This document shows, one piece after another, positions 929 to 6,226 of a stretch of DNA of 20,955 bases (position 1 is the first letter of the stretch; the number at the start of each line of letters is the position of its first letter). The DNA lies in NCBI GenBank assembly GCA_043815885.1, contig JBDRIL010000032.1, positions 1-20,955 on the forward strand, written 5' to 3'. The DNA is from an archaeon. GTDB taxonomy: Archaea > Iainarchaeota > Iainarchaeia > Iainarchaeales > 1-14-0-10-31-34. The notes under the pieces are model-generated. The model was not told the origin of the DNA. It did no database searches and saw only the letters and a program-made list of their open reading frames with translations. The position numbers were made by a program, and so were the translations under genes.

Positions 929-1471
929 ATGGAAAAGGGAAAGAATGCATTAGAGTTAGATACACGAAACAGGATTTATAACGAGATAGTGGACTCTCCG
1001 GGACTGCATTTCAGGGAATTACAGAGAAGGACTACTCTTGCAATTGGTTCACTCCAATACCATCTTGATTACCTCCAAAAGAATAATTTATTGAAGGTAG
1101 AAAAGGAAGGCGCTTACAAGAGATACTTTGCATTAAAGATTCACAGGATAGAGGAAGAGGAAAGAATAATGCCCCTGCTTCGCCAGGAAAACATCAGGAA
1201 AATAATATTGTTTTTACTGGAGAAGGATAACTACAATCACTCTGCAATTGTTTCCTTCACTGGACTGTCTCCTTCAGTTGTTTCCTTTCACTTGGATAAA
1301 TGCATTGAAGCAGGAATAGTGAATAAAACAAAGAGAGGAAGAGAGAGTTATTTCTCGGTTATTAACCCGAATAAAGTAATTGAATTGCTTACCACTTACA
1401 GAAAGAGTTTTCTGGATAAATTGGTTGATAATTTCCTTGAAATCTGGGAGGGAGAAATGAAGAACTACTGA
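929..1471 (+). CDS. Double winged-HTH transcriptional regulator (archaeal COG3398/HVO_0163-like; ArsR-like C-terminal domain)
   Basis: N-terminal RNRIYNEIVDSPGLHFRELQRRTTLAIGSLQYHLDYL and C-terminal LSPSVVSFHLDKCIEAGIV...GRESYF wHTH signatures; RBS GGAGG at 918-922. Confidence 0.88.
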   Translation: MEKGKNALELDTRNRIYNEIVDSPGLHFRELQRRTTLAIGSLQYHLDYLQKNNLLKVEKEGAYKRYFALKIHRIEEEERIMPLLRQENIRKIILFLLEKDNYNHSAIVSFTGLSPSVVSFHLDKCIEAGIVNKTKRGRESYFSVINPNKVIELLTTYRKSFLDKLVDNFLEIWEGEMKNY

Positions 1472-1635: not shown

Positions 1636-1679
1636 AAAATCAATGCAGTACAACAAAGTTCACCGGCAATCAACTCTCC

Positions 1680-1693
1680 CGAAAATATTTAAG
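1680..1693 (+). promoter_or_regulatory. BRE/TATA-like promoter for a probably leaderless LAGLIDADG gene
   Basis: CGAAAATATTTAAG ends about 24 nt upstream of ATG 1717; no RBS in between. Confidence 0.45.
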
Positions 1694-1716: not shown

Positions 1717-2889
1717 ATGAAGAAAAGATTGAATATTCCTAAAGAACAGCTTTACGATTTGTATTGGAATAAGAAATTGACTTTAGTTGAAATTGGAAAA
1801 GAGTTTGGTTGCACTGGAGAAAACATTATTTATTGGCTTAAAAAATTCAGGATTGAAAAAAGGCCAAACCAACGAAAAATTGATATACCGAAAGAAGTTT
1901 TGGAGAGACTTTATTGGAAAGAAAATTTAAAGACAACTGAAATCGCAAAAAGATATGGCATAAAGCATGGAAGGACAATCCTCAAGAAGATGAAGAAGAC
2001 AGGAGTTCCGTCAAAGACTCTTTCAGAAGCAAGAACTATAAAGATGAAGAAACCTTTTTCCGGGCCATTAGAGGAAAAAGCTTATTTTCTTGGTTTGAGA
2101 GCAGGAGACTTCTATGCAAAGAAAACACATGATTGCGTGAGAATTCAAACAACCACGACTCACCTTGCTCAAGTGGCATTATTAAAAAAATCTTTTGAAA
2201 ATTACGGGGAACTGGGAGTTTATTTAAGTAAAAACAAAAAAAGAGATACAGAGTGGTTTATCTATATTGATCTTCATAATTCATTTAATTTCTTAATTGA
2301 AAAACCGGAAGAAATTCCTGAAGAAATAATGAATGATGACAATGCTTTCTTTAATTTTCTTTCTGCTTACATGGATTGTGAAGGAAGCTGGGATGTAATT
2401 AAAAGCCATAAAAATAGTGTTAGATTTTGTTTTAGAATGAAAACAGGAGACAGTAAAATCCTTGGACAATTCAAGAAAAAATTGGAAGATAAAAATTACA
2501 ATCCAAGAATGTATTTTTATGCTAAAAAAGGTAGAAGAACACTTTATGGAACATATAAAAAAGACATTTATGATTTAACTCTGTACAGAAAAAAAGAAGT
2601 AATATCAATAATTAAAAAATTGCTTCCATTGAGTAAACACAGTGAAAAAATCAGAAGAATGAATTTTATTTTAATTAATCAGAATAGAAAGTGGAATGAA
2701 ATAGAAGGCGGATTGAATAAATTGAGAAAAGAAATTAAAATGGAATTATTGAAAAATCAGAGTAATACAAATATTGAAGCGAAAATTAATGCAACTATTG
2801 ACATGAGTTTTAATAAAATATTGATCGCAGGCCCGGAGGTATCCTTCCAGGGGTCACCCACAGTATCGCCAACAACTGCTGCCTTGTGA
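1717..2889 (+). CDS. Free-standing LAGLIDADG homing-endonuclease-like protein with two N-terminal HTH repeats
   Basis: Repeats [25 protein letters not shown] and [34 protein letters not shown]-like motifs [11 protein letters not shown] (2080-2112) and [10 protein letters not shown] (2356-2385). No intein splice motifs. Start is ATG 1717 (TTG 1699 alternative). Confidence 0.8.
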
Positions 2890-4772
2890 GCAAAGCTTCC
2901 TTTTCCTCCGAAATTTCCTTTTTCAATGTATTTCTTTGCGTTGTCCCATGCTCCTCCGGCGTTAGCCATCATTATTGCCATCATTACTCCAGAAGTTAAT
3001 GCTCCTGCAAGAAGGCCTCCAACTGCCTCAACCCCAATAAGCAATCCAACCACTATTGGAGCTAATACTGCAAGCAATCCTGGAACAATCATTCTCTTTA
3101 TTGCTGCACTTGTGGCAATATCAACGCATTTAGTGTAGTCTGGTTTTGCCTTTCCTTCCTTTAATCCTTTAATGGTTTTCCATTGCCTTCTCACTTCTTC
3201 AATCATTTCTCCTGCTGCATCTCCCACTGCACTCATTGCAAATGAACTGAAAAGGAATGGAAGCATTCCTCCAATAAGCAATCCAACAATTACTCTTGGA
3301 TCAAGGAGTGAAAGGGTTTCAATTCCTGCAGTGACAGTAAAAACAGAGAACAAAGCTAAAGCAGTTAATGCTGCTGAACCTATAGCGAAACCTTTTCCTA
3401 TTGCTGCAGTAGTGTTTCCCGCTGCATCAAGTGAATCAGTTCTTTCCCTCACTTCTTTGCCTAACCCGGCCATTTCAGTAATTCCCCCAGCGTTATCTGC
3501 TACTGGACCGTAAGCGTCAACTGCAAGGGTCACTCCTAAAGTTGAAAGCATTCCCAGTGCAGCAATTCCAATTCCATACAATCCGGCAAAGTGAAAAGCA
3601 AAATATATTCCTGCAACAAGAACAATTACCGGAAGCGCTGTACTTTTATAACCTAAAGCCAGTCCTGCAATTATATTTGTTGCTGCTCCTGTATTGCTTG
3701 ATTCAGATAACTTTCTTGTGGGAGAGTATTCATGGGCTGTATAGTATTCAGTTAAGTAACCAATAACTATTCCTACAATTAATCCAATTACCATTGCATT
3801 GAATACACCCATTTCCACTCCGGGAAAATACTGGAATAAAAAGTAAGATGCAATAATCATTATTCCTGCAGCAACCAGGGTTCCGTTCCTTAAAACAGAG
3901 TGAATCTTGTTTCCTCCAGCAAATTTAACAAATAAAACCCCTATAATTGAGGAAATTATTCCCACTGCAGCCAAAAGCAATGGAAGAGTCAATCCAGGAA
4001 TTTGGAATGCAATGAATCCCAAAGCCATTGAGGAAATTATTGCTCCAACATAACTCTCAAAGAGATCAGCACCCATTCCTGCAACGTCCCCAACATTATC
4101 CCCTACATTATCAGCGATTACTGCCGGATTGCGGGGATCGTCTTCTGGAATTCCTGCCTCCACTTTTCCAACTAAATCAGCACCAACATCTGCTGCCTTG
4201 GTGTAAATTCCTCCTCCTACCCTTGCAAATAATGCAATAGAACTTGCACCAAAAGAAAAACCGAATAAAATTGAAATAATTAAACTCTGGTCAGTAATTC
4301 CAATTACACTAGAGTAAAGCAAGTACAGTGCGCATATTCCAATTAAGCCTAATCCAACTACACTTAAACCCATTACTGCTCCGGAAGAAAAAGCAATCTT
4401 TAATGCTTCACTAAGAGAATTCCTTGCAGCCTCTGCTGTGCGGACATTGCTTTTTGTGGCTGTTCGCATTCCAAAGAATCCAGCCAAAGCAGAACAGAAT
4501 GCCCCCACTACAAAAGAAAAAGCAGTCCATGCACTCATTGCCTGAGGAAAGAAAAAGCTTAATGCAAGCAATACAACTACGACTATTACTACAAATACTG
4601 CAATGCTCTTGTATTCTCTTTTAAGGAAAGCCATTGCTCCAATCCTTATGGCTTCAGAGATTTCCTGCATTCTTGCATTGCCTTTTGGCTTGGAGTCAAT
4701 GCCCCTGCTTAAGAATAAAGCCACAAGCAGGGCAAGAATTCCTGCTCCCAAAGAATAAAAAACTAGCTCCAT
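2757..4772 (-). CDS. hppA: Membrane-integral pyrophosphatase, K+-dependent, probably Na+-translocating
   Basis: Motifs [65 protein letters not shown] and GDTVGDP. GNTTAA marks the K+-dependent type; DLFESY carries the Na+-PPase-type Glu. Confidence 0.97.
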
Positions 4773-4811: not shown

Positions 4812-5603
4812 TTATTTCCTCTTTTTTTCTAATTCACTTAAAATTGTGCGGTATCTTTCCCTCTCAGTCCGGTGCATATTTCTATCATCCGGCACAGGGA
4901 AGCGCTTTGATTCTTTTATTCTTCCCTTTAATACCTCAATAGCGGCTTTTTCTTCCGCGCTTAATTCTACTTTTCCTCCATCTTTAATCCTTTCAAATAA
5001 TTTAGTTAATCTTCTCATTAAAGAGTCATTCTTGATAACCCTCCCCCTCTCCCTTAAAAGCAATAATAGTTGTTGTTCTTTTGATTGAACGCTTCTTCCG
5101 ATAGTTGCAAGATGTTTTTCTTGTAATCTAAAAACACGTGCCTCTCCGCCAGTGCGTTCGCCTCTTCTCTTTCTGTTTCTCCAATTTATTATTACCCTTA
5201 AGTTCTCTCTCACCTTCTTTTGTTCTTCTGGGGTTAGAGTTCTTTTTTCACGCATTATTTTTGTCTTTAGTCCTCTTGCAAGCTGGCTGGTTTTTATTTC
5301 TGGATTCCAATAACCCCTGTCACGTAAATTTTCCTTAACCAGGAAATCAATTAATGCGTCTGTATTCAATCCCAAATTAAATAAGTTCTTTAGTCTCTTC
5401 CCAACATATACTGATACATCGCCTCTCATTCCTTTTGAAACTGTGGCTGTCTTTGTAATGACTCCTGCTTTGCATAGCCTTTCTGCTGTAATCGGCCAGA
5501 AAGTCTTTTCCCCTCTCTTTGGTTTAGCGTGTGGAACCTGGAATACCTTGTGTTTTCCAAATATATCAGCCTGAATTATTGTGCTCTTCTTTTTTCTTGG
5601 CAT
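4812..5603 (-). CDS. Highly basic hypothetical protein (MPRKKK...), 263 aa
   Basis: Long open frame, K/R-rich. A GGAG RBS precedes ATG 5603; the track start is TTG 5618. No recognisable domain. Confidence 0.75.
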   Translation of the reverse strand: MPRKKKSTIIQADIFGKHKVFQVPHAKPKRGEKTFWPITAERLCKAGVITKTATVSKGMRGDVSVYVGKRLKNLFNLGLNTDALIDFLVKENLRDRGYWNPEIKTSQLARGLKTKIMREKRTLTPEEQKKVRENLRVIINWRNRKRRGERTGGEARVFRLQEKHLATIGRSVQSKEQQLLLLLRERGRVIKNDSLMRRLTKLFERIKDGGKVELSAEEKAAIEVLKGRIKESKRFPVPDDRNMHRTERERYRTILSELEKKRK

Positions 5604-5618
5604 TTTTTTAGACTCCAA

Positions 5619-5717
5619 TCAATGAAATACGTCTTTTGGCCATTTTTCCGGCAGCTTCCTTATTCCTGTTAATGGAAGCCTTGGCTTCTTTTTTTTCTTC
5701 TTTTTTGTTTCCTTCAT
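5619..5717 (-). CDS. Possible 32-aa lysine-rich micro-ORF (MKETKKKKKKKPRLPLTGIRKLPEKWPKDVFH)
   Basis: Its ATG overlaps the endA stop (ATGA at 5717-5714); it fills the intergenic gap and is in frame with the downstream ORF. Confidence 0.35.
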   Translation of the reverse strand: MKETKKKKKKKPRLPLTGIRKLPEKWPKDVFH

Positions 5718-6226
5718 GGAGTGAGCCTCTTTACCTCGTAATAATTTATGTCGTTCTCTGAATCCACTACTGCAATCAATAGAATGGTTTTAATGTTTCC
5801 GCTGAGCCTCACCATTCTGCTGAATTCAATGAAATTCATTCTGTCGTTCTGGGATACAACTGCTACCGCCCAGTATGTGTGAGCCTGTCCAGGGCGTTTT
5901 CCTCTGGGATACACCCTTAAATCAAATCCAAACTTGAAGCCGGTCTTTACTACGAAGCCTCTCTCCCTTAAATCACTATACACTAAAAATTTGGGATAGA
6001 ATTTCCTGTCCCTCTTCATTGCGTACTTCAATAATTCTTCTTCCTTTATTTTTTTTCCTTCCCTGTCCTCTAAATTTAGTTTCTTTTTTTCCATTAAAAA
6101 ATAAGCTTCAATTAAATCCAGTACATAATCGCTTTCTGTCTTTTCACCAAATCCCTTTGGAATCAATTGGTCTTTCACTTTTTTCTCTCTGACTATGGCT
6201 TTATCGCTTACAAGCAAATTCTTCAT
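5714..6226 (-). CDS. endA: tRNA-intron lyase (splicing endonuclease), single-unit alpha type
   Basis: LDLIEAYFL, VYSDLRERGFVVKTGFKFGFDLRVY, catalytic Tyr (LRVY) and His (QAHT), C-terminal LLIAVVDSENDINYY; RBS AGGTGA. Confidence 0.93.
   Translation of the reverse strand: MKNLLVSDKAIVREKKVKDQLIPKGFGEKTESDYVLDLIEAYFLMEKKKLNLEDREGKKIKEEELLKYAMKRDRKFYPKFLVYSDLRERGFVVKTGFKFGFDLRVYPRGKRPGQAHTYWAVAVVSQNDRMNFIEFSRMVRLSGNIKTILLIAVVDSENDINYYEVKRLTP

Follow-up and report, generated by a model that had tools for sequence, protein, structure and literature searches.

We analysed a stretch of 20,955 nucleotides from an archaeon of the Iainarchaeales (NCBI GenBank assembly GCA_043815885.1, contig JBDRIL010000032.1; the whole stretch is called the window here), and in particular a 390-aa open reading frame (ORF) on its forward strand (1717..2889, from an ATG at 1717; an alternative upstream start, TTG, lies at 1699). 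This ORF runs antisense into the 3' end of hppA, the gene for a membrane H+-pyrophosphatase (2757..4772, reverse strand, 671 aa, intact; Pfam H_PPase PF03030, E 4.7e-280). Comparison with related loci indicates that it is very probably a selfish element attached to hppA, namely a homing endonuclease gene of the free-standing kind. Its predicted structure suggests that the product is most likely a monomeric double-motif LAGLIDADG enzyme with two N-terminal helix-turn-helix (HTH) DNA-binding units (HTH2-LAGLIDADG), and the lineage to which it belongs is found in small-genome archaea of the DPANN type, where it appears to dock at the hppA stop codon with the two genes lying tail to tail. A first-pass annotation, made from the letters of the window alone, had proposed a chromosomal archaeal free-standing homing gene tied to the 3' end of hppA, and the constant docking, the empty alleles and an inheritance that is not strictly vertical, all described below, speak in its favor.

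A constant address at the 3' end of hppA

Database searches with the protein encoded by the ORF (the window protein) returned 146 homologues at E <= 0.001 with identities of 46-62%, on contigs whose records name Woesearchaeota, Aenigmarchaeota, Diapherotrites and similar lineages. A survey of the neighbors of homologues, one of the checks suggested in the first-pass annotation, gave a uniform picture. When one genome per species was scanned using the family alignment as the query, 26 loci were recovered (a genome-contig scan with the window protein alone yielded no loci), and in all 26 the 3' end of hppA is the direct neighbor, 23 of them convergent and 3 co-directional. Adding the window, genome G052 and a remnant in genome G068 brings this to 29 of 29 genome loci, 26 convergent and 3 co-directional. 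A scan of metagenome contigs identified 80 loci, 16 of which are cut by the contig end about 60 nt or less past the 3' end of the gene; hppA adjoins 63 of the 64 informative loci (62 by tblastn and L177 by inspection). In the co-directional cassettes, three of 29 in genomes (L037, L039 of G011, and L048) and five of 63 in metagenomes (L142, L148, L154, L164 and L202), it is the promoter side that faces the hppA stop. We found no inverted or displaced hppA 3' pseudo-end beyond the nuclease in the three co-directional genome loci, nor one beside the window copy. The remaining informative metagenome locus, L201, encodes a family member 52% identical over aa 99-346; after it come two hairpin-like repeats and then, where hppA would be expected, a convergent gene of another kind.

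The nuclease gene, which is present once in the 1.16-Mb source genome, has its own start and lies antisense to an uninterrupted hppA, and Rfam detected no intron family at the locus, in line with the earlier impression that there is no intron or intein context. The ORF had also been called visibly more AT-rich than hppA, and this is borne out by a GC scan of the window (0.24-0.37 across the ORF versus 0.38-0.45 in hppA), with values down to 0.24-0.28 across the 3' half of the ORF. Left-flank synteny with family relatives (window positions 929-1471 and 497-910) was not found within the compared loci, and none of the runs recorded as RNA contains the window stretch. At position 1887, inside the nuclease gene, the window has an A and the contigs of two runs from different studies have a C, which could reflect strain variation or a mistake in the window sequence.

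A double-motif LAGLIDADG core preceded by HTH units

An AlphaFold2 model based on the family alignment (pLDDT 88.6) consists of two HTH units followed by a core with two alpha-beta-beta-alpha-beta-beta-alpha repeats, the linker being poorly predicted. The two N-terminal HTH repeats seen in the first-pass annotation are recovered in this model as three-helix units at aa 9-43 (1741..1845, forward strand) and aa 59-95 (1891..2001, forward strand), and the double-motif core, delimited by the alignment, the model and Foldseek, spans aa 118-341 (2068..2739, forward strand). The top Foldseek matches in the Protein Data Bank (PDB) are all LAGLIDADG enzymes, namely E-DreI, I-AniI, the bI3 maturase, I-DmoI, I-SceI and PI-PfuI (E 4e-9 to 1e-6, probability 1.0, sequence identity 10-18%); a PDB sequence search with the window protein gave chance matches only (E 0.4-0.9).

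The first of the two LAGLIDADG motifs is FLGLRAGDF, with D131 at nt 2107-2109, and the second is AAYMDCEG, with E222 at nt 2380-2382. Both had been noted for keeping their acidic residues, and D131 and E222 are indeed invariant in 44 of 44 aligned family members, as are G126, R128 and G130 around the first acid and Y218, D220 and C221 before the second. Of the 44 members, 31 match the Pfam family PF14528 (LAGLIDADG_3) with E values of 0.01 or less, the lowest being 3.4e-8. Within the HTH region, unit 1 gives weak Pfam matches to Sigma70_r4 and HTH_Tnp_IS630, and the sole NCBIfam match of the window protein is a weak one to sigma-70 region 4. Family members possess one, two or three HTH units, which corresponds to lengths of ~300, 350 and 400 aa.

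A putative target site recoded in nuclease-bearing hppA alleles

Window hppA contains a Trp at position 642 (2847-2849; GDPWKD) in place of the usual Phe or Leu, and the first-pass annotation had suggested that this residue could mark an immune allele. To describe the variation at this site, we defined the canonical hppA motif as GDT[VILF][GA]DP[FL]KDT[ASVC]GP and compared 53 nuclease-free alleles (those of the order sample plus the resident copy of genome G101) with 29 non-redundant nuclease-bearing alleles from all collections. The canonical motif is present in 46 of the 53 nuclease-free alleles versus 3 of the 29 nuclease-bearing ones (Fisher p 6e-12), a contrast whose weight is lessened by the facts that the alleles are not phylogenetically independent, that the controls come from one order plus G101, and that the canonical pattern was defined post hoc. 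Within the order alone, all five nuclease-bearing alleles are variant. The metagenomes provide a replicate: among 49 distinct nuclease-adjacent alleles only 1 has the canonical motif, a number that rises to 3 when Tyr is counted as canonical in one hppA clade.

In nuclease-bearing alleles it is the codons for P, F/L, T, G and P that are changed, with ten different residues at the F/L position, whereas the interspersed D, K and D do not vary in either set. Altogether the variable stretch measures ~24 bp and lies 70-95 nt from the hppA stop. The idea that the Trp marks an immune allele thus gains statistical support, its codon and the neighboring ones being hypervariable only in nuclease-bearing alleles. 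These patterns suggest that the likely target is formed by the hppA codons for DP(F/L)KDT(A/S)GP, and on the allele statistics the corresponding region of the window (2829..2852, reverse strand; hppA codons P641-W-K-D-T-S-G-P648) would be the homing site in its immune form. Variable flanks around a fixed center could reflect two LAGLIDADG halves reading a ~22-bp site. Provided that the gene is indeed a free-standing homing endonuclease gene on hppA, we consider it reasonably probable, from the alleles compared, that this stretch combines target and immunity.

Seven of the 53 nuclease-free alleles are themselves variant, and these may be former carriers. Beside the seven we found no nuclease remnants, only antisense-hppA matches. 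The odd motif of one of them, the allele of G087, recurs in the metagenome allele L160, which does have a nuclease neighbor, as would be expected if the gene had been lost and the immunity kept.

Sister lineages at metG and pheS

More distant paralogues found within the order (28-40% identity) dock elsewhere, again at constant places. The pheS lineage (38-40% identity) is located between the 3' end of pheS and pheT at three of three loci (L005, L006 and L007), and members of the metG lineage (28-35% identity) lie directly upstream of metG, between MCM and metG, at 10 of 11 loci, the eleventh being cut by a contig end. The metG loci compared, from other genomes of the order, were L008-L014, L017-L019 and L210-L239. 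The segment before the metG HIGH motif reads ...P-H-[LIA]-G-H in 22 of 24 nuclease-free versus 1 of 10 nuclease-bearing genomes; the variant forms in carriers are F-H-L-G-H or P-I-F-G-H, four of them being P-I-F-G-H, without the first His. The same kind of recoding at metG in the presence of a paralogous nuclease supports the general model. Whether a single HTH-LAGLIDADG family sits on the ends of hppA, pheS and metG, in small DPANN chromosomes, and whether an arms race with the host would then recode near-invariant catalytic-site motifs, those around GDPxKD in the pyrophosphatase and beside HIGH in methionyl-tRNA synthetase, is a broader proposition to which we assign about even chances.

Patchy distribution, decay and probable horizontal movement

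In the order sample, hppA is present in 58 of 101 genomes, and the nuclease gene was found at hppA in four of these plus one with a remnant (5/58). Empty alleles, which the first-pass annotation had proposed to look for, are therefore common, with 53 of the 58 hppA-bearing genomes having empty sites. Among the eight other genomes of the window's own family, six have hppA, 68-74% identical to that of the window, and none has the nuclease. Successive states can be observed within one family in the interval between hppA and acs, which is nuclease-free in G095 (where another small ORF is found), occupied in G042, and in G068 contains an internally deleted remnant; elsewhere, decayed copies are represented by L043, with a premature stop, and L058, which is in fragments. 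An occupied and an empty locus can also be compared in the same-genus pair G052 and G003, whose hppA genes are 79% identical at the DNA level and share downstream genes for a small membrane peptide and an acylphosphatase: directly after the hppA stop, G052 has a cassette of ~960 nt in place of ~36 nt in G003, the right boundary having been read by eye, as MAFFT mis-aligned the right flank of the intergenic regions. No near-identical occupied/empty pair was present among the compared loci (the best, L160 versus L095, is 79% identical over 772 nt of hppA), so that the cassette ends are only approximate.

Trees were built from 19 loci at which the nuclease gene is intact and hppA is complete. An hppA clade comprising L050, L051 and L057 has a support of 100, and the L050 nuclease falls inside another clade with support 99/95. 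The approximately unbiased (AU) test on the nuclease alignment rejected the hppA clade (p 0.00195), a result qualified by the post hoc choice of the tested group and by the long branch of L057. Strictly vertical inheritance, which the first-pass annotation had named as an outcome that would speak against homing, is contradicted by this conflict. Closely related pairs are congruent in the nuclease and hppA trees, and recent descent is therefore vertical. In the complete chromosome of G101, a full-length hppA without a nuclease gene is accompanied, ~390 kb away, by an intact nuclease gene with three HTH units (loci L036/L060 and L059), and this gene adjoins an ectopic 109-aa hppA 3' fragment of a different, foreign allele, bordered by a 100-nt masked stretch. 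Together, the tree conflict and the ectopic fragment of G101 speak for spread, suggesting that the nuclease gene moves horizontally. Among 41 pattern matches in viral contigs there was no relative, and hence no viral vector has been identified.

The same body of data bears on a quite different proposal, in which the protein would be a domesticated WhiA-like DNA-binding protein or a regulator tied to hppA, inherited vertically and often lost, with convergent transcription damping hppA. WhiA is a bacterial DNA-binding protein derived from a LAGLIDADG ancestor; its HTH is C-terminal, the catalytic acids are missing, and it is conserved throughout much of its lineage. The window protein resembles it in joining a LAGLIDADG scaffold to HTH units, and the strict physical link with hppA, the conserved promoter-proximal motifs (see below), the family identity of 46-62% across several DPANN lineages (as given by record names) and the congruence of close pairs in both trees would all suit a regulator. 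However, its HTH units lie at the N-terminus, both catalytic acids are shared by all 44 aligned members, and the gene is present in only 5 of the 58 hppA-bearing genomes of the order, from which it follows that hppA has no need of it. Nor would a regulator be expected to leave pseudogenised copies, an incongruent phylogeny and both orientations, or to have sister lineages at the unrelated genes metG and pheS, and the recoding of hppA confined to nuclease-bearing alleles would be left unexplained. We regard this proposal as very improbable, and the WhiA-like and antisense-regulator alternatives of the first-pass annotation are disfavored accordingly by the invariant acids, the patchiness, the tree conflict and the motif recoding.

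Promoter-proximal motifs

A TATA-like box, AAAATATTTAA (1682..1692, forward strand), recognized by eye 25-35 nt upstream of the ATG, is a putative promoter of the nuclease gene's own and would possibly give rise to a leaderless mRNA; relatives have TTTATAAA-type boxes at the same distance from the start. Upstream of the box, two motif classes are found in related cassettes, GGTCC-N4-TGTRTCTTTCAA at 14 loci and CACTGGACA, often doubled, at 10 loci. They are located 40-150 nt upstream of the starts (L033-L057) and are mutually exclusive except in L044, which has both. Of the 16 occurrences of CACTGGACA across 510 kb of locus sequence, 12 are at -143..+2 from hppA-type nuclease starts, at 10 loci. 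Since the motifs keep to the promoter in both cassette orientations, they are part of the cassette.

The GGTCC-N4-TGTRTCTTTCAA motif is similar to the target consensus when the latter is reverse-complemented (position weight matrix score 5.75 versus 2.44 +/- 0.58, reached by 0 of 2000 column shuffles), the two agreeing, over 18 nt, in 10 of the 13 positions that both specify; the CACTGGACA motif showed no similarity to the target. At loci of the CACTGGACA class the hppA alleles are in most cases altered at the P-x codons alone, and at those of the GGTCC class they have changes at the T/G/P codons as well; the two classes may reflect two specificity types. In the window, a degenerate copy, CACCGGCAAT, of the CACTGGACA(T) motif can be discerned at 1661..1670 (forward strand; 7 of 10 positions by eye, a weak assignment).

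The 133-nt antisense overlap

The nuclease ORF had been described as having no stop of its own before hppA and as reading 133 nt into it (2757-2889), and these coordinates were confirmed. Homologues terminate in ...ELLKNQ plus 0-22 residues; in the window the end of ELLKNQ falls exactly on the hppA stop codon and is followed by a 42-residue C-terminal read-through and stop (2761..2889, forward strand), which is unconserved and antisense to the 3' end of hppA. Because homologues stop so soon after ELLKNQ, this tail is, on the alignment, a by-product of cassette position and frame: the read-through is real in the window but is not a feature of the family. The 133-nt overlap results from the cassette abutting the hppA stop and its frame entering an antisense frame of hppA that is free of stops, and the same frame is also open in nuclease-free hppA alleles without the neighboring gene. 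Among intact convergent loci of other genomes and the window, the overlap of the two genes ranges from 4 to 133 nt, and at L054 there is a 127-nt read-through in the same antisense frame of a gene that is otherwise intact.

Could the long overlap be an artefact, an assembly or sequencing indel having removed a true stop near 2757-2765? Relatives stop 0-22 residues past ELLKNQ, and two independent assemblies break at ~2800, one yielding the 361-aa protein P0001 on a 2774-nt contig and the other a Logan contig that ends at 2800. That Logan contig (from run X1, which may be the sample source of the window assembly) nevertheless matches 1400-2800 with one substitution and without indels and bridges the junction; the check proposed in the first-pass annotation, for an indel near 2750-2760 that would restore a stop, thus revealed none across 2750-2800. 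A second Logan contig matches 2810-3007, positions 2801-2809 being without contig cover, and the break sits in a conserved hppA stretch common to other organisms in the sample, with loose ends at 2839 and 2871. Given also the same kind of read-through in L054, we consider an artefact highly improbable. The overlap is not an assembly error, and the stop is truly missing as far as the contigs show.

The missing stop could instead mean that the window copy is a decaying relic of a mobile family which no longer cuts or moves. Its tail is the longest among the intact convergent loci compared, its upstream region matches a motif at no better than 7 of 10 positions, the GC content of its 3' half is 0.24-0.28, decay is common in the family (L043, L058 and G068), and the window protein is below Pfam detection versus 31 of 44 relatives that are detected. 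On the other side, the 390-codon frame is intact, the 30 positions that do not vary in the family, D131, E222 and the SKHSEK block among them, are all kept by the window protein, itself part of the alignment, its fold is predicted with high confidence, and L054 combines a similar read-through with an otherwise intact gene. We view decay of this copy as unlikely but still worth bearing in mind.

A proposed homing mechanism and what weighs against it

A mechanism consistent with these observations would begin with recognition of ~22-24 bp of hppA encoding DP(F/L)KDT(A/S)GP, canonical alleles being cut. Repair from a nuclease-bearing allele would then copy the hppA 3' end together with the cassette, as in the 'intronless homing' of phage T4. 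The pattern of alleles suggests that carriers would be protected by substitutions at the P, F/L, T, G and P codons (Phe to Trp in the window), which flank a fixed center of codons for the catalytic D, K and D, and that fixation would be followed by decay and loss, leaving variant nuclease-free alleles. Finally, autoregulation may make use of an operator close to the TATA box on its upstream side, in the form of the target-like sequence or the CACTGGACA repeat.

A number of observations weigh against this interpretation. L201 is not beside hppA but has a different neighbor across a 458-nt flank, and the opposite orientation at three genome loci is unexplained by simple homing. None of the Pfam models LAGLIDADG_1/2/3 matches the window protein at E <= 0.1, and the window has no clear copy of either promoter motif. 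Canonical alleles coexist with the nuclease at L048, L054 and L057 (3/29), and the seven variant alleles without it are L095 (G087), L100 (G078), L107, L108 and L112 (genus g33), L078 (G050) and L090. The resident hppA of G101 differs from the consensus only by a Cys at the A/S codon, despite an intact nuclease in the same genome. The K and D codons also show synonymous shifts, but a control codon shifts alike, so that this signal is confounded by composition and uninformative. Lastly, the co-conversion tract that the first-pass annotation had suggested looking for could not be demonstrated in window hppA by sliding-window identity: the drop at its 3' end in similarity advantage to family relatives is also seen in another conserved stretch.

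Relationship to known homing systems

Intronless homing by free-standing nucleases is a phage paradigm, and LAGLIDADG enzymes are known mainly from introns and inteins. The free-standing endonucleases of T-even phages (SegA-G and MobE) are described as spreading by 'intronless homing', with cleavage sites away from their own genes (PMC2988022). Like them, the hppA nuclease stands alone beside a conserved gene, with its presumed target inside the neighbor and off the insertion point, and its occurrence among relatives is likewise sporadic; the phage genes spread by break repair and flank co-conversion (PMC2988022), and a similar route is proposed for the hppA nuclease. The enzymes differ in kind, as SegA-G and MobE, as presented in that source, are phage GIY-YIG or HNH proteins and the hppA nuclease is a LAGLIDADG protein with HTH repeats in archaeal chromosomes. 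They also differ in reach, the distances given for the phage enzymes being hundreds to thousands of bp and the presumed site in hppA lying only ~70-95 bp away. Moreover, unlike the phage genes as described there, the hppA cassette is mostly convergent with its host gene and overlaps its stop, and immunity is apparently achieved by amino-acid changes in a catalytic-site motif.

I-DmoI, I-AniI, I-SceI, PI-PfuI and E-DreI share the predicted fold, with two LAGLIDADG helices that each end in an acidic residue. Their genes, however, lie within introns or inteins inserted at the site that the enzyme itself cuts, whereas the hppA nuclease is free-standing and has one to three extra N-terminal HTH units. 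A parallel can also be drawn with I-TevI, which according to the same source represses its own promoter via an operator resembling its homing site (PMC2988022): by the hppA nuclease promoter, the GGTCC-N4-TGTRTCTTTCAA class resembles the presumed target and is a putative operator. Unlike in I-TevI, the resemblance is limited to one of two motif classes, and the window is without a clear copy. We found no published account of an hppA-docked nuclease in the literature searched, which did not cover subscription journals; a 2026 LAGLIDADG survey is devoted to intron-borne genes, and according to its introduction free-standing genes as a rule occur only at intergenic sites (PMC13619312).

The hppA loci would place the logic of intronless homing in cellular archaeal chromosomes, with an address fixed at a gene terminus and with every stage of gain, decay and loss visible. 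Most striking is the apparent cost to the host, as conserved residues beside the catalytic Asp and Lys of the H+-pyrophosphatase seem to be swapped, for at least ten different amino acids, only with the nuclease present. If this is true, selfish nucleases directly drive protein-sequence diversification in essential enzymes of cellular organisms, and dozens of natural pairs of nuclease and target variant would form a ready series for studying, and borrowing, LAGLIDADG specificity. For annotation, the homing interpretation would account both for the odd 133-nt antisense overlap and for unusual hppA (and metG) residues in DPANN genomes.

Other genes around hppA

On the upstream side of window hppA, a 268-aa, very basic ORF without a Pfam family (4812-5618, reverse strand) lies between hppA and a tRNA-intron endonuclease gene (5714-6226). 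In nuclease-free relatives of the same family (loci L027-L031), the convergent neighbor of hppA belongs to a family of small basic ORFs running from MPVK... to ...DRR..KKK, which downstream of hppA are sometimes found in two or three tandem copies.

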